Part shown: positions 19,426 through 57,935 of the stretch, in pieces
Layout of the letters: each line of letters opens with the position of its first letter
Position numbering within the stretch: position 1 is the stretch's first letter
Source of the DNA: Mobula hypostoma
Lineage: Eukaryota
Assembly: GCF_963921235.1 (NCBI RefSeq)
Contig: NC_086097.1
Coordinates: 38,814,001 to 38,878,000 of the forward strand
Direction: 5' to 3'
DNA: 64,000 bases
Notes under the pieces: generated by a model
Database searches by the model: none
Told to the model about the DNA's origin: nothing
The model's input: the letters and a program-made list of their open reading frames with translations, nothing else
Position numbers and translations under genes: made by a program

Positions 19426-19545
19426 TTGGAGTTCTCGTGACGTCATCATTCAGAATGGCCCCTCCGGAAAAACGCTTATTTCACCCCGTTAATCTGCCAA
19501 ATACTAGGTCTCTAAAAAATATCTGAACTGGTAAGTGGGACAAGA

Positions 19546-20511
19546 ATGGGGAAAAGGAATGGAGATAAAAGAAGTGTCACTGCAGACCCTGTGGATGAGA
19601 GGGGTGCAGCGAGCGGCTCTCCTACACGTGCGCGTGGTGGCAAGGCTGACGATGGGCCTCGTTCAGGTGAAGCGGCAAATGTAGTAAAAATTCTGGAAGA
19701 GACACGGGAATTCCAAAAAGACATAAAACAGCAACTAAATGATATCAAGTCAGAGCTCACCAATGTTAATCAAAAAATAGCGGTGACAGAGACACAAATT
19801 GAAAAGATGGAAGATCACGTTCAAAATGTGGAACGGATGCTAAGTAAGATGATAAAAGTGTTAAATCAACAATAAAATAAATTACTCGACCAAGAAGGAA
19901 GGTCACGACGAAAGAATATCAGGTTATATAATGTTCCCGAAGGAGCGGAGGGGTTATCTATGGTGGAGTTTGTAGAAAACTTGCTACGGGACACACTGGA
20001 GCTTCACCCAACCATGGCACCCGACACTGAGAGAGAACACCGCGCGCCTGTCCCGAGGCCTTCTGGAGACAGGGAAAATAAGCCACTGTCAATAGTAATT
20101 AGATTCCTTCTGTACAAAACCAAAGCAGAGATTCTGCACAAGGCCTGGGGAAAGAAGAATATATTTTTAAACGGGAAATTAATATATTTTGATCAAGATT
20201 ACCCCCCAGCAGTCCTGCAGAAATGTAAGGAATATTCTGAAGCGAAGCGAGTATTAAAGCAAAGAAGGATTAACTTCCAGACTCCGTACCCTGCTAAATT
20301 GCGAGTGTTTTATGAAGACAGGACGCAGCTGTATCAGACAGTGGAAGAGGCGACTGCAGACATGAAGGACAGAGGGTTGCCTGTCAGTGTGATCAAACCA
20401 AGGGAAAGCCTGGCTGAGCAGCTATCCCGCTCTGCTTGGAAAATAGTGAGAGAATCGAGAAAGCAGGGGACAGGAGGAGGGCAAGAGAAGAATATCAGGA
20501 AGAGACTGTGA
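19546..20511 (+). pseudogene. L1 ORF1p (RNA-binding protein) with an in-frame stop at 19873-19875
   Basis: Coiled coil, then EGRSRRKNIRLYNVPEG, IVIRF, YFDQDYP, YPAKLRV motifs in one frame. Confidence 0.85.
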
Positions 20512-21014
20512 GTTCTCTAAAGACAGCCCTCACCCCCTCCAGAAGAGCCATAAGGTCTGACTAATTTCAAAAGTGTTGATAAGCTAAACAGAAGCAAAGA
20601 TAGGCGGTGCTATACTTATCTCAAGAATTACATATTATAATGTGGATTTTATATTACTCAATTATTTTATTTTTTATTCATTCATTCACTCCTTTTTCCC
20701 CACCCAAATGAGAATATACACATGGGAGGAATACACAGGGAAGTCTTTTCTGTGTAATGGACATAGATTTTTTTTACTTACTTTTATGGGTACTGCAGTG
20801 GGGGCCCTCAACTCACAGGTAGGAGAGGCTATCCCCCACGGCTAGACGTTTCCTCTAGCTCAACCCAGGGTCATCTACTCGATACCTCAGCCTTGGAATC
20901 ACACCTTCGCTACCTTTTTTTTCATTTGCGTTTCTTGGTTCTTATTTGTTCAGGGAGTAGATCGATTAAGTTCTATTTTGCTAATTTTAATGATATACTG
21001 ACACATAAATACAC

Positions 21015-24000
21015 GTGGCTAAGGACAAAGTAAAATTAATTTCTTTTAATGTCAATGGGCTGTTAAATCCAATCAAACGCAGTAAAATTCTGTCAAAGAT
21101 GAAGAAAGAACAAGCCCATGTTGTATATTTACGGGAAACTCACAAGTGATAATGAGCATGGAAAACTAGAGAGAATGGGCTTCACTAATTTGTTTTTCTC
21201 CTCATATAAATCGGGAAATAGGAGAGGAGTTGTTATTCTCATCTCAAGCAAGGTAAATTTTGAAAAAGTATTTGAAATGGGAGTTAAGGAGGGCAGATAT
21301 ATTCTGGTAAGGGGGAATATAGATGGAAATTCAGTTACTCTATTGAATATATACGCACCCCCAGGAAGTGATATTTGTTTCTTCCAGAAAATTACTAATA
21401 TTATGGTAACGGAAACAGAAGGTCTCTTGATATGTGGGGGGAGACTTAAATTTACAATTACAACCAAAGTTAGACTCTTCCAATAGAAAAACCTATGAAA
21501 CAAAGTCCTCACATAAGAAAGTTAACACACTTTTTCAGGATGTTGGTCTAATTGATATGTGGAGGGACCTTTTCCCCGATAGAAGGGATTACACTCATTA
21601 TTCTGCCCCCCATTCTGTATATACAAGAATAGACTATTTCATAACATTTGGAAAAGATAAAGACAAAATAATCACCTGTGGAATTGGGCAATAGATATTA
21701 GTGACCATGCACCTATATATTTATCTGTTGATTTTGACCCACATCCAAAGAATACAATTTGGAAACTAAATTCAAGTCTACTCAATGATCCCTATTTTAA
21801 GGAACAAATTAAAAGAGAAATTGGTCTTTACTTCGAATTCAATGATAGTGGAGAGGTTTCACCTCCCATTCTATGGGATACTCTGAAGGCTGTCTTAAGA
21901 GGGAAAATTATAGCGATATTTTCATCTAAGAAAAAAAATAAGGAATAAAACATTAGAGGAATTACAAAATAAGTTGAAGGAACTAGAAAAAAACACAAAT
22001 TGAGTTTGACACAGGATACATTAGAGGAAATTTTAAAAATTAGGAATGAAATTAATAGTTTGGCTACACAAGAAATCAGGAAAAATCTGATGTTTCTGAA
22101 ACAGAGACACTATGAAAGTGGATCTAAATCTATGAAAATACTGGCGTGGAAACTGGAAAAAAAAGATAGCAGAAAATACAATTCATAGAATTAGGGATCC
22201 AAGAACAAAACTGATAAAAAATAAGCTAAGTGAAATTCAAGAAGCTTTTGAAGTACTTTACAAAACTCTATATTCCAAAGTTCCAGGGGGAAGCATATCC
22301 CAAATTGACACCTTCCTGAATTCTCTAGAGTTACCCTCTTTAAGCGAAGAACAAAATAGAATGATGACTGCTGACATAACTGAAGCTGAACTAAAAACTG
22401 CTGCCATTAGTAGGCTTAAATTAAGCAAGTCACCAGGATCAGATGGATATACGGCAGAGTGGTACAAAGAATTTAAAAATGAATTAATTCCTGTTTTACT
22501 CCCCACACTGAACTGGGCTCTAAGAAAGGCGCAAATGCCACCCAGCTGGAAGGATGCGGTAATCTCAGCTATACTGAAAAAGAAGGCAAGGATAAACTGG
22601 AATGTGGGTTATTTAGACCAATATCTGTTCTTAATGTAGATTATAGATTAGTTACCTCCATCATGGCCAAATGATTAGGAGAGTTTCTACCCACACTGAT
22701 ACATAATGATCAGACAGGTTTTATCCAACAATGCCAAACACAAGACAATATACGAAGGACACCACATTATGGACCATATACAAAAAAAATAAAATTGAAG
22801 CAATGGTGATAAGTGTGGACACTGAAAAGGCATTTGATTCAGTTAATTGGAATTTTCTTTACAGAGTTTTACATAGATTTGGTTTACATGACACAATTAT
22901 TAAAACTATACAGGCACTATATAACAATTCTACTGCTAGGATTAAAATCGATGGATATTTATCAAATAGTTTTACCCTAGACAGGGTTACGAGACAGGGT
23001 TGTGCATGGTCACCGCTACTCTTCGCATTATATCTGGAACCATTAGCTCAATACATCAGACAAAATGAAGATATCAGGGGAATTATTATTACAGGGACAG
23101 GGCATAGATTGGCCTGATACGCGGATGACATTTTGATCTATCTAGGGCAACCAACATACTCTTTACCTAAATTGATGCAATCCTTTGAACAACATGGTCA
23201 ATTATCAGAATACAAGATCAACATAGATAAAACCCAATTACTTCCATATAACTATAGCCCACCAAGAGAAATTGAAAGTAGATATCCTTGGGCATGGCAA
23301 ACAGAGTCTTTCAAATATTTGGGCATTATTATGCCAAAAGATTTGGCAAAATTATCAGAATGCATTTATCCGCCTATATATAAAAAAATTAAGGAAGATA
23401 TATCAAGGTGGAACCTAATTCCTTTTCTTGGTCTCAGTTCAAGGATTGAATCCATTAAAATGAATATATTGCCCAGACTATTATATCTCTTTCAGACCCT
23501 ACCAATAGAGATTAACCAAAATCAATTCAATGAATGGAACAAGATGTTATCAAGATATATATGGCAAGGTAAAAGGCCTAGAGTTTGTCTCAAAACTTTG
23601 CAATTAGCCAAGGAGAAGGGGGATGGGGCCTACCTTCTCTCAGAGATTATTATTTTGCAGCACAGTTGAGAGCTGTGATATGCTGGTGCAACCTATCATA
23701 TGGCGCTCAATGGAAAAACATTGAGGAGAGGATACTTTCCATCCCCATACAGGCAATTTTGGCTGATAACAACCTACAAAGTTACATAAATACTATTGAT
23801 AACCCCTGGGTGAAATGGACTCTTAAAATATGGAAAACTATTATAAAAGAATATAAACTAGAGGGAGATATTGCAATTCCTAAATGGTGTGCATATGACT
23901 CGGATTTTACGCCAAATAAACTGGATGCTAGATTTAAGGACTGGACAGCTAAAGGAATAACAGTTCTTTGCAATATAATGAAAGAAGGAATACTGTTCAG

Positions 24001-24558
24001 TTTTGAAATGCTTAAAGAGAAACACTTATTAGAAAAACAAGACTTTTATCGGTATTTGCAGATGCGACAGTATGTTAACAGGAGGGTTAAAAATGTAACC
24101 AAGGTACATGCTTGATAGAGCTATTTAGAAGAGCATATAATTCAGATAATGGTAGTAGAATCATTTCAAGCATGTATAAGGGTTTGTCAAATCTTAAAAC
24201 ACACTCAACTTCATACATTAAAACAAAATGGGAGAAGGAAGGAGGGATAATTATATCTGAGGAAGAATGCACAATAATATGGAGGTATCAATGGAAGTGT
24301 ACCAGTTCACAGAAATGGAGGGAGTTTGGATGGAAAGACGTGATAAGATATTTTATTACACCCGCTCAGAAATCCCATTATGATAGTAACCTCCCTGTTT
24401 GCTGGAGAAATTTGGAAATCAAAATGCAAGCTATCACCATATTTTCTGGGATTGCCCCATTATCAAAGACTATTGGAGTGGGATACACAATGCCCTATCA
24501 GACATTTTTAAATGTGAAATACCCTTAGAAAGTAAGACCATATATTTTGGGTATATTT
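21015..24558 (+). pseudogene. L1 ORF2p (APE endonuclease / reverse transcriptase), frameshifted
   Basis: SFNVNGL, NIYAP, GGDLN, RIDYF, SDH (endonuclease); SPGSDG, DTEKAFDSV, RQGCAWSPLLF, YADD (RT); HHIFWDC. Confidence 0.9.
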
Positions 24559-41553: not shown

Positions 41554-41952
41554 TGACAGTCTTAGGCAATAAGGGATGGGTAATAAATATAGTCCATATT
41601 TTCAAACCAAATAATAAAGAACTTCACAGGTAGATTTGGAAACATGGAAACTCTTACGTTGGTGGATGAGTTTTGGAAAAGTGCATGCCAGTCAATCTAT
41701 GCCCTGGACAGTAGCATCCCTTTCAAAATAATTGATGCTGCACTATTTCTTAACTGGAAAAATGGAAAAAAAATCAAAATAGACTCTGCTGTGATAAACT
41801 ATTGTAGGGAGTCAATATCAATATTTTCTTCAATAACTAGTCTAAATTCGCATTTAACAACAGGAATTCTGCAGATGCTGGAAATTCAAGCAACACACAT
41901 CAAAGTTGCTGGTGAACGCAGCAGGCCAGACAGCATCTGTAGGAAGAGGTGC

Positions 41953-41988
41953 AGTCGACGTTTCAGGCCGAGACCCTTCGTCAGGACT
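41953..41988 (-). ncRNA. Minimal type I hammerhead ribozyme motif in the PLE terminal repeat
   Basis: AGUC-CUGACGA-AGG(gucucgg)CCU-GAAAC-GUC-GACU: stem I, catalytic core, stem II, palindromic ACGU stem III, GUC cleavage triplet. Confidence 0.75.
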
Positions 41989-42455
41989 AACTGAAGGAAG
42001 AGTGAGTAAGGGATTTGAAAGTTGGAGGGGGAGGGGGAGATCCAAAATGATAGGAGAAGACAGGAGGGGGAGGGATAGAGCCAAGAGCTGGACAGGTGAT
42101 TGGCAAAAGGGGATACGAGAGGATCATGGGACAGGAGGTCCGGGAAGAAAGACAAGGGGGGGGTGGAACCAGAGGATGGGCAAGAGGTATATTCAGAGGG
42201 ACAGAGGGAGAAAAAGGAGAGTGAGAGAAAGAATGTGTGCATAAAAATAAGTAACAGATGGGGTACGAGGGGGAGGTGGGGCCTTAGCGGAAGTTAGAGA
42301 AGTCGATGTTCATGCCATCAGGTTGGAGGATACCCAGACGGAATATAAGGTGTTGTTCCTCCAACCTGAGTGTGGCTTCATCTTTACAGTAGAGGAGGCC
42401 GTGGATAGACATGTCAGAATAGGAATGGGATGTGGAATTAAAATGTGTGGCCACT

Positions 42456-42791
42456 TCCTTCCAGGTGAGGCAACACTTCACCTGTGAGTCGACTGGGGTG
42501 ATATACCGCGTCTGGTGCTCCCGATGTGGCCTTTTATATATTGGCGAGACCCGACGCAGACTGGGAGACCGCTTTGCTGAACATCTACGCTCTGTCCGCC
42601 AGAGAAAGCAGGATCTCCCAGTGGCCACACATTTTAATTCCACATCCCATTCCCATTCTGACATGTCTATCCACGGCCTCCTCTACTGTAAAGATGAAGC
42701 CACACTCAGGTTGGAGGAACAACACCTTATATTCCGTCTGGGTAGCCTCCAACCTGATGGCATGAACATCGACTTCTCTAACTTCCGCTAA
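42456..42791 (+). pseudogene. 5'-truncated Penelope-like GIY-YIG endonuclease domain (frame still open)
   Basis: FTCESTGVIYRVWCSRCGLLYIGETRRRLGDRFAEH...RLEEQHLIFRLGSLQPDGMN. Confidence 0.9.
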
Positions 42792-43082
42792 GGCCCCACC
42801 TCCCCCTCGTACCCCATCTGTTACTTATTTTTATGCACACATTCTTTCTCTCACTCTCCTTTTTCTCCCTCTGTCCCTCTGAATATACCTCTTGCCCATC
42901 CTCTGGTCCCCCCCCTTGTCTTTCTTCCCAGACCTCCTGTCCCATGATCCTCTCGTATCCCCTTTTGCCTATCACCTGTCCAACTCTTGGCTCTATCCCT
43001 CCCCCTCCTGTCTTCTCCTATCATTTTGGATCTCCCCCTCCCCCTCCAACTTTCAAATCCCTTACTCACTCTTCCTTCAGTT

Positions 43083-43118
43083 AGTCCTGACGAAGGGTCT
43101 CGGCCTGAAACATCGACT
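43083..43118 (+). ncRNA. Minimal hammerhead ribozyme motif (CpG-decayed copy)
   Basis: agtc ctgacga agggtctcggcct gaaac atc gact; one G>A change relative to the 41953-41988 copy. Confidence 0.6.
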
Positions 43119-45176
43119 GCACCTCTTCCTACAGATGCTGCCTGGCCTGCTGCGTTCACCAGCAACTTTGATGTGTGTTGCTAAATTCACATTTGCTTAT
43201 TTGAAAGGTTAGTGCACCTGTGAACATAATCTTTATTTTGCATAGAAAATGACATATGGTCAGGTATGATGCATAAGGTTTCAGCCTATGTGTTCATCAC
43301 TTGCCGTACAAAGTAATTATGGAATCCTGGAAGCTAATAGAATGAGGCATCTAAGAAGGCAGTAGACTCATTTTAAATGGCATGCAATTAAATAATATCT
43401 AACAAATTACCTCATAGCAAACAACTTCTATTAATATTTCAAAAATATAATTTACAATTAGATCATATTTTCCTTTTGATTACTTTACATCACTCACGTC
43501 AAGAAGTTTATTTTCAAATTTGTGACTCACAGAATACCTTGATAAGAAATAGGTCAGTTCAAGTTGTGAGAGTAATGTCCTCCAAACCTGTGAAGAATTT
43601 CTGTACTGGCCATGATCCAACAAAATCACATTTTCTGCTTCGGAAATTACAGTACATTTAGATATAAATGCAGTATGTCAAATCAACATTAATCAAGTTC
43701 CCAAGCTCAGCTGATGGAATCGTGGAATGATGGATTATAAATTATACTGACCATTTGGTGTAACTCAACATCCAAAATATTGCTTAATTGGATTCTGCCA
43801 TCAGTTTATTTTCCAATCTCATCTTGATATGCAATCTGCTGCTATCCATAGTGACAGACTGGGTCAATGTGACTACTTTGGTGCAGCTGGAAAAGTGATG
43901 TTTAAAAATCAGCCAATCATAGAAAGTTAGTCAGGTGGATAAGAGGCTGAATTCTTTACAGTTATTAGTATCAGCAATTTCATGATTAAACAAAAATCTG
44001 ACGTCAGTTTTAGAATTAATTTCCCTTTGTGTAAATTTTTCAATCCCCATCACAGCTTCTCACACAATGTTCTGCTAAGTTCCCTGTTGTCCCTCAATTA
44101 CAAACTTGAAGTTCCCAGTGTCTTATTGGTGAGGGAGTCTGAAGATCTCCTTAATTTATTTTTGTAGGAATATTATAATGAGAAAGGGGATAAAAAATAG
44201 CAAGTATAAAGGAAGAGAAAGTAAACAGTGTACAGGTATGAGTGTACCTTAAGTTCCAAACTGGTCACAATATTGCATATTACACATTTAAACTCCAGAG
44301 AGCATTTTGTGACATATTGTAGAACATCTTTGGATTGGCCCATTCACTGGAATCTTGCTCATCATTATATTTGCATCACTAAACATTTCTCTGCAACTTT
44401 GATGGTGTTCTAATGAGGAATCATTGATCCAACGAAGAGGAGGACAGTCCTTTTCACTTTTCCTCACTCCTGTCTTTGTTGAAACAGAGATGAAACACTG
44501 ACAGGCACCATTGCAGCAAGTGTTCTGTTCATAAACAAGGTGCTGTGTCCTGTAGCATAAATAAAGTGTAGATTTAGGAATGGGAGAGCGTATCTGCAGT
44601 TACCTTTGGGTCCTGCATGGATACATTCAACAGCCTAAAAAGGGGCTATGAAATAATAAGGTTATTCTGTAAAGTTACAATGGCACATACATCCACATGT
44701 GTGACAGCCACTTTAACTGTCTAAAATGAGCTGCTTTAACAAAATTGCTACTGCCAACTTCCAAAGAAATTTACATCAAATTGGCTAATCTGACAAATGT
44801 CTCTTTGACCCCCTGTAGCAAATGGTTTAAGCACTCTGCTCACGCTCTCTACCAGCAGGGGTCCTCCATGTAATGGACCTTGACTGCAAATACGGCAGCA
44901 TCCACTTTAAATTCAAAGCTCTGTGACTGAAGTTCACCTCTTGAGACAGGTTTCTTTAGACAGGCCCGAGAAAATGAGGTCAAACACATTATCTGCTGAT
45001 TATTGTAAAGCTAGTTTAACTTCTCTCTGGGCTGCATGATTTAACATAGCCTCCTACTCTGTTAGTATATCAAACATTTAAAGCAGGAACCTCATTATGT
45101 AGCCCCCAGAGCTTAGCTCAGTCATAATGTGTTCTTGTGGGGGAATATTTTAAGAGCACAATTGAATCCATGAAGA

Positions 45177-46419
45177 ATCTTGTTAATCATCATTCATTTT
45201 AAAATTACTTTGATCAGAAAGCTTGGTAAAACACTCCTTGTGAACGGTGGCAGTGGTTTTCAAGGGAGATGAGAAGGGAACATACTTAAATATGGTACGA
45301 GCGACATTAGATCTTCCTAACTCCATCATCTGCTATTGGCTGCTATTGGAAGTGTCACTTCTTTCATCAGCCTTTCCTGAAACTGAACTTAGGTTTTGAA
45401 GGTATGCTTCTCGAGCAGAACTTTGGGAATAACCAGAAATTCTTGGCCACATACATACTGTATGCAGAACAGGTTTATACCATTCCCTAACATAAATATC
45501 CTGTGGCTTTGTCTCTTTACCAGACAAGTTCACTTTCAATATATATGTGCGCAGTCTGGAACAAGTGCAAACTAAATTTAGCCACTCATGACTATTAAAA
45601 TTTAAATTTGAATATTTCCAATGCAATTAATACCTATTTTCCCCACTGCTTTTGTTTCATGTTAATTTTTAAATTTAGCCATCATTGTATAGCAGCTGTA
45701 TTGGCCAAGAAGGGTAGTATTAAGGTAAGAGGTAGACAATAAGAGTGCAATAATGCTTAAGGCACCTTATATCGAAATATTATTTTGGCTCACTGTGTCA
45801 TCAAAACAATTCAATAAATTCTAGTTGTTTTCAGATTTCGCACAGATTAATTTATATTCTAAACACTTCAGATGGTTCTGCAATAAGAATTTTTATGTGA
45901 GCTGTTGGCAACATCATCAGTAGGCAAATGCATCAAAGACTGTGTGGTTCTTATGTCTGATCTCTCAGCCTTCAGTAAAATGACATAACTGATTTCAATA
46001 ATCAGCATACTGTCAAACTCAAAAGTTAATGGATATGATTTACATTTCCATACACACGTTAGGGTGTGGTAATGCTATGTAAGTTCCCATGATTAATGTC
46101 TACTTATTTTTCCTCCATTTATATAGGCATCCGTTACTCTCGTGAGACCATGGATTTGTGCCTTCGAAGGTTTGCAGGGTGCAAGCCTGGGCAAGGTTGT
46201 AAGGAAGACCTGCAGTTGCCCATGCTGCAAGTCTCCCCTCTCCACGCCACAGATGTTGTCCAAGGGAAGGGCACCAGGGCCAATACAGCTTGGCACCGGT
46301 GTCGTCGCAGAGCAATGTGTGGTTAAGTGCCTTGCTCAAGGACACAACACGCTGCCTCAGCTGAGGCTTGAACTAGTGACCTTCAGATCACTAGACTGTT
46401 GCCTTAACCACTTGGCCAC
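45177..46419 (+). repeat. 1.24-kb direct repeat, copy A (non-repetitive DNA + SINE)
   Basis: Colinear with 52681-53915, with scattered substitutions and small indels. Confidence 0.95.
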
Positions 46420-46424
46420 GTGCC
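46121..46424 (-). mobile_element. tRNA-derived SINE with RTE-type 3' tail
   Basis: A box TGGCCAAGTGG, B box GTTCAAGCC; 3' end matches the RTE 3' end at 54550-54587. Confidence 0.85.
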
Positions 46425-46727
46425 AACATGATCTCGTTTACACAGCTATTAATATCCAGCAAAGGGCAAATAGTGGAAATTTACTTGCTAAAATGGATAT
46501 AAAGTTTTGTAATTTTCATCAGATTAAGCAAGATAGATTTCGATTTAATTTAAGTGATGACTTACTTGTTACATACACCTGTTAGGGTGCATTCTCCAGT
46601 TACCTTATAAGTTAACCGTAGCCTTCAGCCAGGAGCAGATGTCATCAGGTGGTTCCCAATCTTCACCGAGTGTTTCAACCCTTAACCACGACACTATCCA
46701 GTTGGTGGGCCGGCAGTGGTGGCCAAA

Positions 46728-49700
46728 TCACTGCCCATCTGCTCCTGGCTTCCAGCTTCCCTCCTCTCGTCTACTCCAAATCCAACAGGAAGCTCGTTCT
46801 GCCTCTTCCTCCATCCTATGAGCTGCTTGTTTTTTGCTCCTTTCGTCCAGGCCCAGATCTGACAACAACCGCAAAGTTGATTTGGCTGGGAAACCAATGC
46901 AGCAGATCTCCACAAGGAACAACTATGCCTGCCATCCCTTGTCTTTACACTCCTGCACTAAGGGCTGGTAATTCAAGGCCTTTCTCTCGTGGGCCTCTTC
47001 GTATCCCTCCTCCCACGGCACAGTCAGCTCAACTAGAATTATTTTCTTGTCTTCAGTTGACCACAGTACAATGTCCGGGCGTAGGGTTGTGTGCACCACA
47101 TCCGGGAACTGCAACTTCCTTCCCACATCGACCCTCATCTCCCAGGACCTGGCCGTTCGCAGCAGATTGGGCTTTAGTTGTTTGGTCACGAAAAGACCTG
47201 GCTCCCTCTTTGATGAAGGTGATGGCCTTCCTCAAATCTGTGCTGGCCGTCCTCTTCTTGCACTTCTCCCGCTCTAGTGTGTCAGCAAGAGCCAGAAGCA
47301 CCTTATCATGGCGCCACCTATACCGTCCTTGAGTTAGAGCTGTTTTACACCTGGACAGTATATGAGCCAGTGTCCCCTTTTGACCTCAGAGCTTATAGTT
47401 CAGGTCCTCTCTCATCCCCCATGTGTACAGATGTAATGGTGAAGGAAGGGTGTCATACACGGATCGCAAGAGGAAGGAAATACGGAAGGGCTCCCGTCTC
47501 CATAACTCTGCCCAAGAGATCTTGCGCTTAGGCAGATCCCATTTTGTCCAGGCACCCTGGGACCCTTGTTCCACTGCCTTTGAAATCCGCTTCTCTTCCT
47601 CATGGATCCGTACTTCTGCCTGTACCATGTCTCACCTGTTCCTTATGCTTGCGTTTCCCCACTTCTGGAAGTGAACTGAGCCGAGGCCTTGCCGCCCAAC
47701 ACAGGGGTTGCTGATGATATCTCGCAGCTTCAGACAACACACTGCCTCCTCCACAGCTGCATTGGCTGCCCACTTGCGCCCAGATCTGGTTGTAACACCT
47801 GCTTGCTTTACCAAGATATCATTGGAATCTCTCAAGCTTAATAAAGCTCTGCATTTTGCCACCTTGAATTCCTCCACAACAGATGACAGGGGAAGCGCAG
47901 TTGCCCAGAACGAATGTAGAGGCCCACTGAAGAGAAGCTTGAGGGAACTCCCAACCATCTCCGCAGGTGCTTGTTAGTTTTCCTCTCGATGCCCTCTACG
48001 ACAGTCATGGGGAACTCATAAAGTATGAAGAGCCAGAGAAGCCTGGGCAGAATGCTGTATTGGTATAGCCAGGTCTTGAATTTACCTGGAAGTCCGGATT
48101 TGTCGATCTTCTTCAGCCATTCCTCTGTCTGCTTCACAGCATTGGTGACATTGGCCCCATCTGTCGGTGACATATTAAATCACTTCTCCAAGCATTTTAT
48201 CGGGTTATCTTTCGATGGAAGGGATTACCTGACCCTGAACTTGGAGGTTAAACTTGCTAGTAACTTTGTCGTTTCTGATCACCATGCACCTGGACTTCTT
48301 GGCCTTGAAGGACATCCTCGCCCAAGTGGCTACATTACCCAGGGTTTCCAATACCCATCTTGCTTGGACATGTGACACAGTTGTTATAGTGATGTCATCC
48401 ATGAACCCTTGTAGAGCTGGCTGAACAATGCCTGACTCCAGCATCGGGCTGCGGGTTACATCTTCTGCTGCTGATAATAGGAGATTCATTCCCATAGTAA
48501 ATAGGATGGGGGAGATGGTGCACCCTGTTGGAATCCCCTTCTGGAGGTCCTGCCAACTAGTTGTGAAACGGGCTGATGTAAATCTGAGTTTGAATCCTCC
48601 TAGGTAGCTGGTGATCATGTCTCGAATAGTCACTGGGATGTAGTAGTGGTCGAGTCCTTCTAGGATGAGGTCATGTGGAATAGACCCGTAGGCGTTCGCC
48701 AGGTCTAACCAGACAACTGTTAGGTCACCTTTTTTCTGCTTGGACTCATGGATCAAATGGCTAATCATTGAGGTGTGTTCCAGACACCCCAAAAAGCCTG
48801 GAATACCGCCTTTCTGGATGGATGTGTTGATATAGTGGTTCTGCGTCATGTAAGAAGTCAGTCTTCTTGCAAGCACAGAAAAGAAAATCTTACATTCCAC
48901 ACCCAGGAGAGAAATTGTCCTAAACTGGGCAATTGTGGAAGAAACCTCTTCCTTTGGAATAAAGCATCCCTCTGCCAATTTCCAACTTGATGAAATAGTA
49001 CCTTTGGCCCAGATCTTTCTCATGACCTTCCACAGCCTCCGAAGTAGTTTCGGGCATTTCTTATACACCTTATAAGGTATGCCGCTTGGGCCTGGGGCAG
49101 CTGATGCTTTAGCTTTCTGGATGATGTCCTGGATTTCCTGCCATGTAGTCTCCTTTACATTCAGCTCAATTGATGGATTTTCCCGTCTACGCACAGTCCG
49201 ATTGGTTCCTAGTCCCTGACCCCTCCGTGGGTCGCTGTGTGCCTCCCGCAGGAACTCCTCTACCTCTGGCTTCGAGCTGGATAGTATACCAGATTTTTGT
49301 TGGCCGAGAAGTGTCCAGGTGAAGCTGAATGGATCTCTCAGAAACTGCGCTCGCCTTTTCTCTTTCTTCCTTCTTTGCTGTCGCAGATGTTCCACCCTCC
49401 AGAGTTTGCACAGCCTTTCCCACAGCATACTGCTTAAACATAGAAACATAGAAACATAGAAAATAGGTGCAGGAGTAGGCCATTCGGCCCTTCGAGCCTG
49501 CACCGCCATTTATTATGATCATGGCTGATCATCCAACTCAGAACCCAGCCTTCCCTCCATACCCCCTGACCCCTGTGGCCACAAGGGCCATATCTAACTT
49601 CCTTTTAAACATAGCTAATGAACTGGCCTCAACAGTTTGCTGTGGCAGAGAATTCCACAGATTCACCACTCTCTGTGTGAAGAAGTTTTTCCTAATCTCG

Positions 49701-52046
49701 GTCCTAAAAGGCTTCCCCTCTATCCTCAAACTGTGACCCCTCGTTCTGGACCTCCCCAACATCGGAACAATCCTCCCGCATCTAGCCTGTCCAATCCCTT
49801 TAGGATCTTATACGTTTCAATCAGATCCCCCCTCAATCTTCTAAATTCCAACGAGTACAAGCCCAGTTCATCCAGTCTTTCTTCATATGAAAGACCTGCC
49901 ATCCCAGGAATCAATCTGGTGAACCTTCTTTGTACTCCCTCTATGGCAAAGATGTCTTTCCTCAGATTAGGGGACCAAAACTGCACACAATACTCCAGGT
50001 GTGGTCTCACCAAGGCCTTGTACAACTGCAGTAGTACCTCCCTGCTCCTGTACTCGAATCCTCTCGCTATAAATGCCAGCATACCGTTCGCCTTTTTCAC
50101 CGCCTGCTGTACCTGCATGCCCACTTTCAATGACTGGTGTATAATGACACCCAGGTCTCGTTGCACCTCCCCTTTTCCTAATCGGCCACCATTCAGATAA
50201 TAATCTGTTTTCCTATTTTTGCCACCAAAGTGGATAACTTCACATTTATCCACATTAAATTGCATCTGCCATGAGTTTGCCCACTCACCCAACCTATCCA
50301 AGTCACCCTGCATCCTCTTAGCATCTTCCTCACTGCTAACACTGCCACCCAGCTTCGTGTCATCCGCAAACTTGGAGATGCTGCATTTAATTCCCTCATC
50401 CAAGTCATTAATATATATTGTAAACAACTGGGGTCCCAGCACTGAGCCTTGCGGTACCCCACTAGTCACCGCCTGCCATTCTGAAAAGGTCCCGTTTATT
50501 CCCACTCTTTGCTTCCTGTCTGCTAACCAATTCTCCACCCACACCAATACCTTACCCCCAATACCGTGTGCTTTAAGTTTGCACACTAATCTCCTGTGTG
50601 GGACCTTGTCAAAAGCCTTTTGAAAATCCAAATATACCACATCCACTGGTTCTCCCCTATCCACTCTACTAGTTACATCCTCAAAAAATTCTATGAGATT
50701 CGTCAGACATGATTTTCCTTTCACAAATCCATGCTGACTTTGTCCAATCATTTCACCGCTTTCCAAATGTGCTGTTATCACATCCTTGATAACTGACTCC
50801 AGCAGTTTCCCCACCACCGACGTTAGGCTAACGGGCCTATAATTCCCCGGTTTCTCTCTCCCTCCTTTTTTAAAAAGTGGGGTTACATTAGCCACCCTCC
50901 AATCCTCAGGAACTAGTCCAGAATCTAACGAGTTTTGAAAAATTATCACTAATGCATCCACTATTTCTTGGGCTACTTCCTTAAGCACTCTGGGATGCAG
51001 ACCATCTGGCCCTGGGGATTTATCTGCCTTCAATCCCTTCAATTTACCTAACACCACTTCCCTACTAACATGTATTTCACTCAGTTCCTCCATCTCACTG
51101 GACCCTCTGTCCCTTACTATTTCTGGAAGATTATTTATGTCCTCCTTAGTGAAGACAGAACCAAAATAATTATTCAATTGGTCTGCCATGTCCTTGCTCC
51201 CCATAATCAATTCACCTGTTTCTGTCTGCAGGGGACCTACATTTGTCTTTATCAGTCTTTTCCTTTTTACATATCTATAAAAGCTTTTACAGTCTGTTTT
51301 TATGTTCTCTGCCAGTTTTCTCTCATAATCTTTTTTCCCCTTCCTAATTAAGCCCTTTGTCCTCCTCTGCTGAACTCTGAATTTCTCCCAGTCCTCAGGT
51401 GAGCCACTTTCTCTGGCTAATTTGTATGCTACTTCTTTGGAATTGATACTATCCCTAATTTCTCTTGTCAGCCACGGGTGCACTACCTTCCTTGATACCT
51501 TCTTTTTTGGCCGGTGAGCTGGTTTTATACCTCTTGTTAAGCATCTTTAATTCACCTCTCAAGTGACGAATCCCCGTTTCCCTCCTATTTGGTTGCCGCG
51601 GTAACTCCAGCTGGCTTCTCCGCTCCATTGGGCCAAATCGTTCCTTAGCTAGATTGTACGCTATGGCTGTGAGTGAGTCGATCTTTCTGTGTACTGGACC
51701 TGCTAAGGCAACTTCCAGGATGCCGTCTAGATCATCATCGAACTGCATTCAGGCGACGTTGTCTGATGATCTAGGCCATTTGATCCTGCCTTTCCTTGAC
51801 GAATGGATTGGGGTAGCCGAAGAGGACCTCACTAGGTCTGTTGTCCGGTGCTTCCTGGCTGGAATTCTCCTTCGTCTACCCGGACACTAAGTCCATGCGC
51901 TGCACTTGGGTCACCACTGATCCATATCTAGACCTGCTCTGGAGTATCTTGAGCCCTCTGATGTTGTTGCAGACTTTCCCGCAATGACACCTTACCATGA
52001 ATTCCTCTCCGGTCAGTGTTGTTTGCTTTAGCTTCCTCGTAGCCAT
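46728..52046 (-). pseudogene. HERO-like single ORF (ZF-RT-CCHC-REL), frameshifted and split by CR1
   Basis: Track ORFs 51876-52325, 51455-51748, 48205-49509, 47838-48173, 47632-47958, 47386-47628, 47053-47301, 46923-47189, 46728-46922 are consecutive pieces. Start codon inferred. Confidence 0.85.
49438..51487 (-). mobile_element. Young 5'-truncated CR1 LINE nested in the HERO ORF
   Basis: 585-aa open ORF2 segment (KSPGPDG, NYRPVSLTS, YLDFQKAFDKVPH, GVPQGSVLGP, FADDTK), one frameshift near 49765, (TTTCTATG)n tail. Confidence 0.96.
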
Positions 52047-52308
52047 GTTTCCTGTCCTGGCCGTTGCTGGTATGACCGTCCTGTTGAGTCTCTCATCCTC
52101 CCCGCCCTCCTCTCGGGAGACTCTGGGGGTACTGCTCTTCGTGTTCGGTCGTAGCTTGAGTGGTGCCCTCTTGCGAGTGCTGCCCACAAGGTTGCTAGCC
52201 TTGTGAACTTGTGCCAGTCTTTCCTGGAGGTCAGCTGTCTCTCCAGTGTCACCGACCTTCCTCGTTGCCATCCAGTCTTTCCTGGAAGCCACTGGTACAA
52301 ACCAGAAA

Positions 52309-52683
52309 TTACTTCTTACATACACCTGTTAGGGTGCATTCTCCAGTTACCTTATAAGGTAACCGTAGCCTTCAGCCAGGAGCAGATGTGATCAGGTGGT
52401 TCTCAACCTTCACCGAGTGTTTCGACCCTTAACCACGACACTCTCCAGTTGGTGGGCCGGCAGTGGTGGCCAAATCACTGCCCATCTGCTCCTGGCTTCC
52501 AGCTTCCCTCCTCTCGCCTACTCCAAATCCAACAAGAGGCTCGTTCTGCCTCTTCCCCCATCCTAGGAGCTGCTTGTTATTTGCTCCTTTCGTCCAGGCC
52601 CAGATCTGACAACAACCGCCATGCTGATTTGGCTGGGAAACCTCTGCAGCCGATCTCCACAGGGAACAACCATGCCTGCCATC
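52309..52683 (-). mobile_element. Second copy of the HERO 3' end, fused to the 5' end of the full-length copy
   Basis: Colinear with 46562-46936; about 21 substitutions in ~375 nt by manual count; similarity starts at the same terminal nucleotide. Confidence 0.93.
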
Positions 52684-53915
52684 TTGTTAATCATCATTCA
52701 TTTTAAAATTACTTTGATCAGAAAGCTTGGTAAAACACTCCTTGTGAACAGTGGCAGTGGTTTTCAAGAGAGATCAGAAGGAAACATATGGTACGAGTGA
52801 CATTAGATCTTCCTAACTCCATCATCTGCTATTGGCTGCTACCAGAAGTGTCACTCCTTTCATCAGCTTTTCCTGAAACTGAATGCAGGTTTTGAAGGTA
52901 TGCTTCTCGAGCAGAACTTTGGGAATAACCAGAAATTCTTGGCCACATACATACTGTACGCAGAACAGGTCTAAACCTTTCCCTAACATAAATATCCTGT
53001 GGCTTTGTCTCTTTACCAGACAAGTTCACTTCCAATATATATGTGCGCAGTCTGGCACAAGTGCAAAAAAAATTTAGCCACTCATGACTATTAAAATTTA
53101 AATTTGAATACTTCCAATGCAATTAATACCCATTTTCCCCACTGCTTTTGCTTCATGTTAATTTTTAAATTCAGCCATCATTGTATAGCAGCTGTATTGG
53201 CCAAAAAGAGTAGTATTAAGGTAAGAGGTAGACAATAAGAGTGCAATAACTTTTAAGGCATTTTATATCAAAATATTATTTTGGCTCACTGTGTCATCAA
53301 GACAATTCAATAAATTCTAGTTGTTTTCAGATTTTGCACAGATTAATTTATAGTCTAAACGCTTCAGATGCTTCCGCAATAAGAATTTTTATGTGAGCTG
53401 TTGGCAACGTCATCAGCAGGCAAATGCATCAAAGACTGTGTGGTTCTTATGTCTGATCTCTCAGCCTTCAGTAAAATGACATAACTGATTTCAATAATCA
53501 GTATGCTGTCAAACTCAAAAGTTAATGGATATGATTTATATTTCCATACACACGTTAGGGTGTGGTAATGCTATGTAAGTTCCCATGATTAATGTCTACT
53601 TATTTTTCCTCCATTTATATAGGCATCCGTTACTCTCGTGAGACCATGGATTTGCGCCTTGGAAGGTTTCCAGGGCACAGGCTTGGGCAAGGTTGTACGG
53701 AAGACCGGCAGTTGCCCATGCTGCAACTCTCCCCTCTCCACGTCACCAATGTTGTCCAAGGGAAGGGCACTAGGGCCAATACAGCTTGGCACCGGTGTCG
53801 TCGCAGAGCAATGTGTGGTTAAGTGCCTTGCTCAAGGATACAACACGCTGCCTCAGCTGAGGCTTGAACTAGTGACCTTCAGATCACTAGACTGATGCCT
53901 TAACCACTTGGCCAC
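52681..53915 (+). repeat. 1.24-kb direct repeat, copy A' (includes SINE copy ~53618-53915)
   Basis: Colinear with 45177-46419. Confidence 0.95.
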
Positions 53916-54195
53916 TTGTCTAAATTGGGCAATTGTGGAAGAAACCTCTTCCTTTGGAATAAAGCATCCCTCTGCCAATTTCCAACTTGATGGAATAGTC
54001 CTTTGGCCCAGATCTTTCTCATGACCTTCCACAGCCTCTGAAGAAGTTTTGGGCATTTCTTATACACCTTATAAGGTATGCCACTTGGGCCTGGGGCAGC
54101 TGATGCTTTAGCTTTCTGGATGATGTCCTGGATTTCCTGCCATGTAGGCTCCTTCACATTCAGCTCAATTGATGGATTTTCCGGTCTACTCACAG
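53916..54195 (-). mobile_element. Internal HERO RT-region fragment
   Basis: Colinear with 48915-49196; about 11-12 differences in ~280 nt by manual count. Confidence 0.92.
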
Positions 54196-54544
54196 AATCC
54201 CAAATCTAGATAACTCTACAGAATAATAATTGAAGCATTCCCATTTTCCTCATTTTATATAAGAAGTATCAAGAGTGGAAACCATCTAATTTAAAGATTT
54301 AATCCACTTCAGTCATCTTTATTTTTTCTATAACTATTTCCTTTTATCCCATGATAAATTCGTTATATGTAATAACCCAATATTTTTCTGCTAGTAATTT
54401 TCCTCTTGCTTCTCCTCATTTCACATTTTTCTGTTTAATTTTTATTCATAGTTGCCTCAGTTGAATCTACCTTTATTGGGCACATATTCATATTTACCAC
54501 TATTTTTAATTCACTTATAAAAAAGTAGCTCTAGTAACTACTCT

Positions 54545-55124
54545 TCGGTGGCATCCATTAGTCTCCCGAGACCATGGATCTGCGCCTGGAAAGTCTTGCT
54601 TCAGTCTGTGTTAGAGCAGCGTCTATTGTGGCTGTAGAAGCCCACACGGGAGTGACAGTCTCGGCTGCAGCGACTGCACTTGAAGGCGCTGTTCTCCAGT
54701 GTTGTCTTGATGCTGTTTTTCCGATGAGTGCGCTTTTCTTCAGCAGCAAGCCTCAGCTTCTCTTCTCCTTTTTTTAGGCCTCTGTATAGTTCCAGCCTCC
54801 AGTGAGAGCGATCACTTGCGATGTTCTCCCACCTCTCGATGTTCATTTTCAGTGACTTCATGTCTGTCTTGCAAACGTCTTTGAAACGAAGATGGGGCCG
54901 CCCTTGTGTTCTCTTGCCGGAGGCCAGTTCCCCGTACAGCAAGTCTTTTGGGGTCCTCCCGTCTGACATGCAGTGTACGTGGCCCAGCCAGCGGAGACGG
55001 TGTTGTTGGAGCAGGGTGAAGAGGCTGGGTATCTGGGCGCTGGCCAGGACCTCATTGTTGGTGACTCGGTCAATCCACGTGATGTCCAGGATGCGTCTCA
55101 ATCTTCAATGCCTTCCACCTTCGC
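54545..55124 (-). mobile_element. 5'-truncated RTE LINE with short 5' inversion
   Basis: RRILDITWIDRVTNNEVL...RLRWLGHV...PKDLLYGEL...GRPHLRFKD...CSRCSRDCHSRVGFYSH; 12-bp TSD AGTAACTACTCT at 54533-54544 and 55125-55136. Confidence 0.92.
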
Positions 55125-55639
55125 AGTAACTACTCTATATCCCAAATAACCCCTTTATTCTTTTGATGGAAACACTTCTTCCTGCATTAGCATTTCGAAT
55201 TCCTGAATCATGAACACCTTTATCAGACTGAACATAAGAATGCATTTTCCTGATCAAAAGCCCATCAGTTTTTCTCATCTTTTCCCATAAATCAATTCTC
55301 TAGACTCTGACATAATGAATAAATATTTTATATCTTCCTCATGACCTTTACATCCTTTCTAAAGAAAGACCTCTACCCCCCACTGTAGATCTATATGTTG
55401 TTGAAAAATTACACAAGGAGCACAGTGGAAGATCAGATATTTTCTCTTGGTGCCATTGATGCTTCTAGCTTCTGGAAAGGTCTGCATAGTCAGAGGTCTT
55501 CTCCCTTTCATACAAGGATTGAAGGCTGTGCACAATGTCTAGGGGAGCATGGAGAACAGTACTGGACTGGCAAGATAAAAATATTCAGAGGCAGATTCCT
55601 TTTAGTACCTATCCTCAAAAAGTATTTCATTTTAAAAGT

Positions 55640-55780
55640 AGGTCCTGATGAAGGGCCTCAGCCTGAAATGTCGACGGTTTACTCTTTTCCATAGATGCTG
55701 CCCGGCCGGCTGACTTCCTCCAGCATTTTGTGTGTGTTGCTTTGGATTTCCAGCATTCTGCAGATTTTTTCGTATTTATG
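55640..55780 (+). mobile_element. Penelope-like pLTR fragment with hammerhead motif (55642-55675)
   Basis: gtc ctgatga agggcctcagcct gaaat gtc gac, followed by the PLE terminal sequence. Confidence 0.75.
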
Positions 55781-56029
55781 AAGACAACACTGTTGATATT
55801 CATTATATGCTGTCTATATGTAATAACTCATATCAGCCTGCCATAAGGCCTTCAACAAGGTCCCACATCGCAGGCTGATGTGGAAAGTTAGGTCACATGG
55901 GATTTGGAGATAGGGGTTGCTGGCTAGATGGATTCAAAACTGGTTGAAGTTGAAAGTTGATTCTCTGACTGGAGGCCTGTGACTAGTGCTGTGCTCCAGG
56001 GCCAGTTTTGGAAACTCTGTTATTCGTCA

Positions 56030-57935
56030 TAACAGCCGGGATATAGATTACAAATTACAGCAGAGATAGAAGAGCTTGTCAGAAGGGCAATGTCATGATA
56101 ATCATTGGGAATTTTAACGTAAAAGTGGATTGGGAAAACCAGGCCAGTACTGGACTTCAAGAGAGAGAATTTGTAGAATGTCTCAGGGGTGGCATTTTAG
56201 AACAGCTTGTTGCTGAGCCCTCTAGGGGATCGGCTGTGCTGGAATGGGTGTTGTGCAATGATCTGGAGGTGATAAGAGAGCTTAACGTTAAGGAACCCTT
56301 AGGGATCAGTGATCACAAAATGGTTGAGTTCACTTTGAAATCTGAGAAGGAGAAACTAAATTCCAATGTGTCAGTATTTCAGTGGAATAAAGGAAATTAC
56401 AATGGCATGAGAGGGGAACTGGCCAAGGTTGACTGGAAAGGGACACTTGCAGGAAGGACAGCAGAGCAGCAATAGCTGGAGTTTCTGCAAAAGATGAGGG
56501 AAGTGCAAGACAGATATATTCCAATTAAGAAGAAATTTTTGAATGGAAGAAGGAGACTACCGTGGCTGACAAATGAAGTCAAAGTAAAAGCAAAATAAAG
56601 GGCATACAAGGAAGCCAGAGCTAGTGGGAAGATAGAGGATTGGGAAGCTTCTGAAAACTTGCAGAAGGAAACTAAGAAGGTCATTAGGAAGGATAAGATG
56701 AATTATGAGAGAAAGCTGTCAACTGATATCAAAGAAGATACTGAGAGCTTTTTAAGTATATAAAGGGTAAAAGAGAGTCGAGGGTAGATATAGGACCAAT
56801 ACAAAATGATGCAGGAGATATTATAATGAGAGATGCAGAGAAACTGAATGCGTATTTTGCATCTGTCTTCACAGTGGAAGACATTTGCAGTATACCGGAC
56901 ATTCAAGAGTATCAGGGAAGTGAAGCTGGTGCAGTGAAAATTTGGACCGCTACTTTTTACGATGTATGTCTATGATTTGGACTAAGGGATTAATGGATTT
57001 GTGGCTAAATTTGCCGATGATACAAAGATAGGTGGAGGAGCGGGTAGTGTTGAGGAAACAGAGAGTCTGCAGAGACACTTAGATAGTTTAGGGGAATGGG
57101 TAAAGAAGTGGCAATTGAAATGCAGTGTATGGTCATGCACTTTGGTGGAAGAAATAAATGGACAGGCTATTATTTAGATGGGGAGAGAATTCAAAATGCA
57201 GAGATGCAAAGGGACTTGGGAGTCCTTGTGCAGGATACCCGAAAGGTTAACCTCCAGGTTGAGTTGGTGGTGAAGAAGGCGAATGCAATGTTAGCATTCA
57301 TTTCTGGAAGTATAGAACATAAGAGCAAGGATGTGATCTTGAGGCTCTATAAGGCACTCATAAGACCACACTCGGAGTACTGTGTGCAGTTTTGGGCTCC
57401 TTATTTAGAAAGGATATACTGACATTGGTGAGGGTTTACAGAAGATTCACGAAAATGATTCCAGAAATCAAAGGGATGAGGAACATCTGGCAGCTTTTGG
57501 ACTGTATTCCCTGGAGTTCTGGAAAATGAGGGGGGATCTCATAGAAACATTACGAACGTTAAAAGGCCTGAACAGATTAGATATGGCAAAGTTATTTCCC
57601 ATGGTAGGGGAGTCTAGGACAAGAGGACACGACTTCAGGATTGAAGGATGTCCATTTAGAACAGAGATGCAGAGAAATTACTTTAGTCAGAGGGTGGTAA
57701 ATCCGTGGAATTTGTTGCAATTTGTTGGAATTTGTCGGTGTGGAGGCCAAGTCATTGGGTGCATTTAAGGCAGAGATAGATAGGTTCTTGATTAGCCAGG
57801 GCATCAAGGGGTATGGGGAGAAGGCAGGGGAGTGGGGGGTGACTGGAAGAATTGGATCAGCCCATGATTGAATGGCAGAGCAGACTCGATGTGCTGAATG
57901 GCCTACTTTTGCTCCTAAATCTTATGGTCTTATGG
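56030..57935 (+). mobile_element. CR1 LINE with internal deletion (~56945), nested in an older CR1 (55840-56030, 57937-58265)
   Basis: IIGNFN and LGISDHKMVEF (endonuclease), KFADDTKIGG, RPHSEYCVQFW, MRGDLIE; (TCTTATGG)n tail. Confidence 0.87.

Follow-up and report, generated by a model that had tools for sequence, protein, structure and literature searches.

The window analyzed here is a 64,000-nt stretch of Mobula hypostoma DNA (NC_086097.1, 38,814,001-38,878,000), in which a patchwork region at 45177-54195 is built around a decayed HERO-type retrotransposon whose 3' untranslated region (UTR) harbors a hammerhead-like RNA motif. The region opens with the native copy of flank A (A1, 45177-46419), delimited by self-comparison and alignment and found as a single copy in the related organisms F and C, followed by the unduplicated spacer S (46420-46561), which comprises 10 bases of the head of a short interspersed element (SINE) and 132 bp of host DNA. 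The element itself spans 46562-52308 on the minus strand and abuts an upstream partial copy of its own 3' end (B2, 52309-52683, 375 bp, minus strand), recognized from the alignment and from related elements with the same partial-tandem 5' structure. B2 shares the trinucleotide ATC (52681-52683, plus strand) with a duplicate of flank A (A2, 52681-53915), which stops ~10 bases before the SINE 5' end; in the alignment this microhomology marks the sole backward switch after the family-wide junction at 52308/52309. A2 is joined bluntly to a fragment of the reverse transcriptase (RT) region (D2, 53916-54195, minus strand), the source of which (D1, 48915-49196, minus strand) was located by self-comparison and alignment, and D2 is followed by the right host flank G (54196-54544). 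In organisms F and C, the 391-464 bases leftward of G are not D2. No strand is assigned to A1, S, A2 or G.

The element carries a single decayed open reading frame (ORF) and belongs to the HERO/Zebulon type of restriction-like endonuclease (RLE) retrotransposons, as assigned from PF00078, tblastn and 78% identity to the protein P0001. The RT frame matches PF00078 with an E value of 2.5e-21, and residues 1-1156 of P0128 and 88-1100 of P0113 map in order along 46731-52217 by tblastn. For this frame, 487 longer homologues were found among 5735 candidates, the top one being a 78% identical protein of Pimephales promelas. AAN12398.1 and BAC82599.1, Tetraodon proteins that share a 90% cluster and that we take to be Zebulon and HEROTn of Tetraodon nigroviridis, are 47-50% identical along residues 239-1100. 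The element matches the Tetraodon proteins at 48% identity (E 2e-125), whereas R2 and L1 proteins of solved structure lie much further off, with E values of 3e-13 to 3e-11 against R2. A PD...E.K-type stretch at 46923-47231, presumably the restriction-like endonuclease motif, gave no Pfam match. Comparison of the translations with P0128 and PF13966 revealed an N-terminal zinc finger, and a CCHC knuckle before the endonuclease, both present in decayed form. The RT precedes the RLE-type stretch within one ORF, the order that characterizes the HERO clade.

The 78% protein identity to the minnow element (48205-49437) and the 81-84% DNA identity to L002, one of the related loci described below, are high for the presumed distance between the hosts, and hint at horizontal transfer of the HERO element. 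At the HERO 5' start (52190-52308, minus strand), short hairpins with GAAAGA or GAGAGA loops after UGAC are repeated and kept across distant families (fold z -1.3). The original prediction had taken 46562-52308 as one full-length element; a younger, 5'-truncated long interspersed element (LINE), presumably of the CR1 clade, interrupts the ORF (49436-~51491, minus strand; 606-codon frame with PF00078), leaving ~3.7 kb of HERO proper. This nested LINE is 93-95% identical to the window copies at 9989-11480 and 6823-7436, and contigs of organism C join 54195-type sequence to 51500 without it.

The hammerhead-like motif lies on the sense strand, just 3' of the stop codon. The copy at the 3' end of the element (B1, motif at 46642-46711, minus strand) has an intact core, as judged from a descriptor match, the alignment and pair counts, while the alignment shows the core of the B2 copy (52389-52458, minus strand) changed from CUGAUGA to CUGAUCA. 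All core features of a hammerhead (CUGANGA, GAAA, U-H, R10.1-Y11.1 and A15.1-U16.1) are found in the motif, with this one change in B2. The strands run in the order stem II 10.x, a fourth-helix strand, stem III 16.x, U-H and stem I 1.x, followed by stem II 11.x, GAAA, stem III 15.x, the fourth-helix partner, stem I 2.x and CUGANGA. The predicted cut in B1 falls between 46690 and 46689, which leaves 128 bases to the 3' terminus; B2 reaches 247 bases past the corresponding position.

Relatives were gathered by a scan of metagenome contigs, in which 373 stretches matched, 172 were confirmed and the best 80 yielded 79 loci (L-numbers). A descriptor of the motif matched 34 times, always on the coding strand, in 31 of the 80 sequences (the window B1 and 30 loci), whereas ten random 370,043-base sets gave no match. 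With pairing left unused, both core words occurred within 330 bases in 33 of the 39 distinct 3' ends that had 200 or more bases downstream (40 rows less one duplicate, with nine shorter rows excluded). The six misses comprise two 3' ends with strict matches further on, three with a single core change and one without GAAA. In a MAFFT alignment of 36 stretches, selected by the core words only, 92.4% of 685 cells are paired and 18 of 20 pairs changed on both sides. None of 500 shuffles scored as high, and slid controls reached 36-47%, a comparison that favors the structure since it was drawn from the same sequences. Pairing in stems I, II and III covers 97%, 89% and 95% of cells, respectively, with both-side changes in 13 of 15 pairs; the fourth helix is 88% paired, and all five of its pairs have changed on both sides. 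The U16.1-A15.1 pair is present in 36 of 36 stretches and the G10.1 pair in 31 of 36. Placing stem II in the position of the published type SGC hammerhead was tried and rejected, as only 46.7% of cells paired there, the first pair was broken in 35 of 36 stretches, and the score was no higher than for shuffles or slides. Altogether, the comparison strongly supports a hammerhead-like motif in which four helices covary and the strand order differs from all six permutations on record.

We consider it likely that the predicted hammerhead actively self-cleaves. Several points weigh against this. The strand after CUGANGA forms no stem II, though published hammerheads require one, and minimum-energy nested folding, which is unable to represent the crossed helices of the motif, favors another hairpin (z ~ +0.45). 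Moreover, in a contig depth profile compared among organisms, most copies of the ray family reach the terminus beyond the cut. Reverse transcription would then start at the unit terminus and not at the cut, and cleavage does not simply remove the downstream motif from the template. An Rfam search over 43000-57000 gave three weak matches, none of them a ribozyme, the hammerhead-like motif itself being missed by Rfam 15. As to where copies begin, L009 and L011 (the latter at a contig start) begin one base past the predicted cut; among the 11 copies with a readable upstream boundary, these two are joined by two that begin further in, five before the cut and two without a partial copy. Two starts at the cut have a chance probability of 0.008 to 0.05 depending on the assumed range, in a test devised post hoc. 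The predicted ribozyme may set where the element RNA starts: were the upstream unit cut, the RNA would begin with the 128-base tail and the junction, and so give insertions like that of L009.

Beyond the metagenome contigs, no relative was found among viral contigs, and genome contigs contributed five loci, none of which passed the strict motif descriptor while two (L081 and L080) hold both core words. In L080, a distant relative on a circular contig (28-36% identity), GAAA followed by CUGAUGA with stems I and III can be recognized by eye at 1170-1250, together with a possible stem II after the core, an arrangement that would be nearer to type SGC.

Profiles of the 5' start and the 3' end, searched over the 79 loci, located 29 full 5' starts in 28 loci. 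The original prediction had asked for a survey of other copies' 5' junctions for tandem 3' ends, and in these relatives 3'-end sequence stands directly upstream of 20 of the 29 starts (12 of 21 with the eight seed loci excluded). Adding evidence from self-repeats or protein order raised the number to 23, and of the remaining six starts, three have fewer than 80 bases upstream and three (L008 and both L043 copies) lack a profile match. Many of the relative contigs are collapsed circular consensuses, so that the 3'-to-5' path dominates in them. Over 416 bases, L002 aligns straight through the window's 52308/52309 with 81% identity, and by eye the Pimephales protein, at its predicted N-terminus, seems to read through this same junction. 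The junction is identical base for base in L009, L036 and L065, three copies of one family. Where host DNA lies upstream, the partial copy measures ~84 (L015), 120 (L009), 430 (L065), 900 (L045), 1260 (L036) or 1800 bases (L046). The first jump proposed at this locus therefore loses its local character, the 3'-end/5'-start junction being conserved family-wide; on the sequence comparison, B2 is the normal partial-tandem structure of the family and no unique jump. Zebulon is said to have been described as a "partial tandem array" by Bouneau and colleagues in 2003.

Other junctions among the relatives are more varied. L036 (5795-5940) has a 132-bp inverted element piece with short filler at the 5' junction of its partial tandem copy. 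L006 (3994-10315) contains a 5'-truncated HERO that sits in a 60-bp repeat beside a transposase-like frame and is enclosed by a flank duplication of 1.9 kb (98.9%), with the filler junction on the 3' side. L001 (3426-3698) joins two HERO families, only 68% alike, head to tail, and L043 (3050-3840) carries two full-length copies head to head.

These family-wide features can be combined into a wider reading, for which we express only tentative belief: throughout the HERO clade, from fishes to invertebrates, an active hammerhead of a seventh topology in the 3' UTR would cut read-through head-to-tail RNA to unit length, and on circularized or re-entered units reverse transcription from the fixed 3' terminus would go around more than once, giving rise to the partial tandems, B2 among them. 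The seventh topology, in which the backbone would be open between A9 and G10.1, is part of this active-ribozyme reading and is held with the same reserve, and a circular or re-entered RNA template for HERO is likewise conceivable, though somewhat doubtful. To give longer partial copies, such as that in the window, the template would have to be an uncut multimer or a circle, or else be re-entered where the RNA ends.

Returning to the window, the duplicated pieces read by the original prediction are borne out in the alignments. Flank A at 45177-46419 recurs at 52681-53915 with 60 differences over 1235 columns (4.9%) and a single 8-bp indel in a global alignment; the 3' end at 46562-46936 recurs at 52309-52683 with 21 differences over 375 sites (5.6%) and an identical terminal base; and the RT fragment at 48915-49196 recurs at 53916-54195 with 10 differences over 280 sites (3.6%). 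The equal-divergence test proposed for these three pairs gave a heterogeneity chi-square p of 0.48, or 0.15 without CpG-type changes, so that the three rates are statistically equal. The ATC at the B2|A2 junction is likewise present as described, and no target-site duplication was found at the element ends. A microhomology of at least three bases has a chance of 0.05 at one junction, and the A2|D2 junction has none. Each outer edge of the region carries the hexamer AGAATC (45174-45179 and 54194-54199), and a search of the window for a source of the first bases of flank G found none.

Related organisms were sought with 43200-46561, which listed 18 runs, 15 of them containing part of the query. 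The word shares were 0.79-0.87 for organism A, 0.50-0.58 for B, 0.20 for F and 0.07 for C, while the small shares of organisms D and E were counted as no evidence. Contigs of B, of F and of one C sample (two runs) were then compared with 51500-55630 (32 of ~61,400 pieces are listed; holes in F at 53508-53569 and 54379-54500 were counted as no evidence). Flank G differs at 13 of 777 sites in B (1.7%), 30 of 562 in F and 80 of 808 in C. Organism F (~5% diverged) has one unforked contig on A, with 46 differences over 827 sites and no extension onto B2, which runs 2332 bases left of 52681, compared to 2288 expected for the left flank of the window minus a young Penelope-like pair. Organism C (~10% diverged) also has one contig on A, with 85 differences over 805 sites, extending 568 or 563 bases further. 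The G contigs start at 54198 in F, with 391 unmatched bases leftward, and at 54222 in C, with 464 and 427. Both organisms thus have a single flank A running into non-element DNA and lack the D2|G junction. In organism B, one contig covers 52796-53638 with 36 differences, where A1 has 40.

Over the same 827 sites where F differs from A2 at 46, A1 differs from A2 at 43; with one A in F, this places insertion and duplication just after the F split. The data support a narrow time window for the element and the patchwork, the latter being about as old as the insertion. The single flank A of F and C agrees with the predicted empty site, while the exact join of 46561 to 54196 seems to be off by 200-250 bp, as estimated from overhang lengths. 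If the contigs ran through S and then broke inside the SINE, which the B contig enters by 19 bases, the overhangs at G would be 200-250 bases too long. Contig overhang lengths hence suggest that 200-250 bp of host DNA were lost.

The explanation we favor, with confidence about evenly poised, is that the patchwork is a target-primed HERO insertion with second-round copying, followed by a switch of the complementary DNA (cDNA) end into the host flank. Insertion would have occurred by target-primed reverse transcription at 46561/46562. In the first step, judging from the structure seen, reverse transcription would have proceeded from the fixed 3' terminus through the 3.7-kb unit, run on across the conserved head-to-tail junction into a second round, and stopped after 375 bases to leave B2. 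Most likely, a hammerhead-type ribozyme in the 3' UTR would have cut the template RNA, which would then have formed a multimer or a circle or have been re-entered end to end; the 52308/52309 junction fits an end-to-end template jump. In the second step, the free cDNA end in ATC would have annealed 1.38 kb upstream of the nick and been extended over 1.24 kb of host flank, before a switch to the RT region of the element for 280 bases and joining to the right flank with a loss of 200-250 bp of host DNA, the polymerase being either the element RT or a host repair enzyme. Later, the CR1-type LINE inserted in the ORF, and all copies decayed. Coupling to the insertion is favored by the timing, by the place of the patchwork at the 5' junction and by the inverted element piece of L036; in addition, L1 insertions with pieces templated by nearby genomic DNA are described in PMC11702581. 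The equal divergence of the three pairs also speaks for this explanation.

Other observations count against this explanation. The left-hand block holds A1 and D1 in the order in which A2 and D2 stand, and the two later junctions are forward skips along it, so that one tandem duplication plus two deletions would produce an identical map with no coupling to insertion. No microhomology is present at the A2|D2 junction, and a match like ATC is expected by chance in 5% of cases. When fish relatives serve as outgroups, derived changes number 16 in B1 against 5 in B2 and 6 in D1 against 3 in D2, and a loose-end consensus for the SINE part gives 5 in A1 against 2 in A2. Pooled over the three pairs, the left copies have 27 and the right copies 10 (p=0.008, ~2.7-fold), some of the assignments resting on weak outgroup majorities. 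Such a left-right asymmetry is unpredicted by a simultaneous origin with equal rates, and it fits poorly both with insertion-coupled switching and with tandem duplication plus deletions. Finally, 52308/9, 52681-3, 53915/6 and 54195/6 are bridged by none of the contigs listed from other samples, so that continuity of the patchwork rests on the assembly.

The strongest rival, a serious contender that we still judge rather less than probable, is a tandem duplication of 45177-52683 after insertion, by way of ATC, trimmed by two deletions of ~2.5 kb and at least 1.6 kb, the latter including host DNA, that left A2 and D2 as the second copy; a single early replication-based event with several switches would be equivalent. 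It accords with the ATC junction being the only backward one and the others forward skips, and the loss of host DNA beside G, as read from the overhang lengths, would come free with the second deletion. The B pair is also the most diverged (5.6% against 4.9% and 3.6%), as if the insertion came first, though the difference is insignificant. The duplication would however require a breakpoint within the 375-bp partial copy very soon after insertion, and the loss of two kilobase-sized stretches from one copy while the other lost none.

The full model of the original prediction, in which one RT made three serial jumps, the first a chance jump to a second RNA, is improbable in our estimate, which overlaps with that given to target-primed insertion with second-round copying. 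Its single narrow time window stands, whereas its first jump proves to be family-wide and not local. The equal divergences of the three pairs, the known template jumping of the R2 polymerase (PMC2718515) and the end of A2 near the SINE 5' end, as run-off would give, speak for it. Against these, the first junction is precise and shared by the family, and the later switches (52681 and 53916) land within their templates, one in host DNA and one in the ORF, where nothing indicates an RNA end. Moreover, a SINE-started RNA for A would need read-through of six shared T4 runs and shows no terminal U, and at R2 5' junctions PMC2718515 prefers microhomology annealing over jumping.

It is very unlikely that the block 45180-54193 is one insertion with AGAATC as a 6-bp target duplication, A and S being a 3' transduction from elsewhere: AGAATC at both outer edges is consistent with this and would account for the first base shared by both A copies, but the 2332-base extent of the F contig is near the 2288 expected from the left flank of the window, and in two organisms the G contigs end 390-440 bases leftward, a stop that is not expected from a unique left flank of 2 kb (both points from lengths only). 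A haplotype mis-join in the assembly scarcely merits belief, for all that the four junctions are unbridged among the contigs listed, since the copies differ evenly by 4-6%, above the 1.7% that separates the organism from B, its nearest relative, at flank G, and the B contig on A starts just past the A1/A2 indel with extra depth leftward, indirectly resembling a two-copy fork.

On its right, flank A ends in a tRNA-derived SINE (46126-46429, minus strand), identified by a weak tRNA match on a SINE copy (E 0.21), very high contig depth, a loose-end consensus of its 5' end and its 3' tail, the latter having a 44-bp match to a LINE fragment at 54550. A read-through RNA of RNA polymerase III was considered as the template for A and discarded, as both copies hold six T4 runs and no U-rich end. 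The LINE fragment (54545-55124), presumably RTE-like, lies between 12-bp direct repeats (54533-54544 and 55125-55136), and organism C contigs end at 54544 and resume at 55146, as though it were absent. Further left, 41856-43189 holds two Penelope-like arms in inverted orientation that are 98% identical (41889-42455 and 42620-43182), together with a GIY-YIG frame (PF01541); contig extent suggests that this pair is absent in organism F. The window also contains a decayed L1/Tx1-like element in several frames (19516-24528; weak PF02994 match, E 0.047), and a 103-codon cysteine-rich frame in unique DNA (44288-44599, minus strand) that matches neither Pfam nor P0128. Its repeats point to a cartilaginous fish as the source of the window.

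Compared to known systems, the element resembles Zebulon and HEROTn in its single ORF with an RT and a C-terminal restriction-like endonuclease and, reportedly, in the partial 3'-end copy upstream, whereas its 5' junction adds a flank copy and an RT fragment; no ribozyme mention for Zebulon was found in the literature examined. HERO is described in PMC4640811 as a mostly non-specific clade of RLE elements. A literature search found no link between HERO and a ribozyme, most subscription papers and Repbase lying outside it, so that an earlier mention is possible. The ribozyme passages of PMC7761336, PMC13725137, PMC7229834 and PMC3088659 leave HERO unnamed; they describe hepatitis delta virus (HDV)-like ribozymes in R2, twisters in RTE, type I hammerheads in Penelope elements and retrozymes, and stem I-II pseudoknots.

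Eckert et al. 2023 (PMC10085705) distinguish six hammerhead permutations, assuming that CUGAnGA and both adjoining stems stay together, and show type SGC to be active; no retrotransposon link is seen in the passages available. Like type SGC, the HERO motif has all core nucleotides, the order cleavage site, GAAA and CUGAnGA, a short stem I-II linker and a fourth helix that ties stems I and II. They differ in that the stem II partner of HERO lies 5' of the cleavage block, a break that PMC10085705 assumes impossible, and in that the HERO motif is hosted by the 3' UTR of an autonomous LINE. The motif thereby breaks an explicit assumption of the 2023 permutation classification.

R2, with its 5' HDV-like ribozyme (PMC7761336, PMC13580325), is also an RLE LINE in which self-cleavage may set the RNA 5' end; in HERO, by contrast, the motif is of the hammerhead class and stands in the 3' UTR of the preceding unit, not at the 5' end. 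Penelope-like elements and non-LTR (long terminal repeat) retrozymes (PMC7229834, PMC7761336) share with HERO hammerheads in tandem repeats and partial tandem insertions, but theirs are type I hammerheads; they form unit-length linear and circular RNAs, of which the circle would be conjectural for HERO. Non-canonical L1 insertions (PMC11702581) likewise have nearby genomic and element pieces at the 5' junction and a loss of target site, along with small deletions and duplications, differing in being fresh events in cultured cells, whereas this is an old germline RLE copy in which later rearrangement is possible.

The patchwork is thus a known kind of complex LINE insertion, beyond its first piece mostly a one-off repair scar, and a modest case of its kind; the motif in that first piece matters more. 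With it, HERO gains a candidate RNA-processing element of the sort R2, RTE and Penelope already have, and the predicted ribozyme offers a testable cause of partial-tandem insertion. The RLE retrotransposons screened for gene insertion include HERO elements (PMC13580325), so an understanding of how HERO RNA ends form has practical value. If the wider reading is true, HERO would be a LINE that is autonomous, carries its own endonuclease and passes through an RNA cycle like that of retrozymes.

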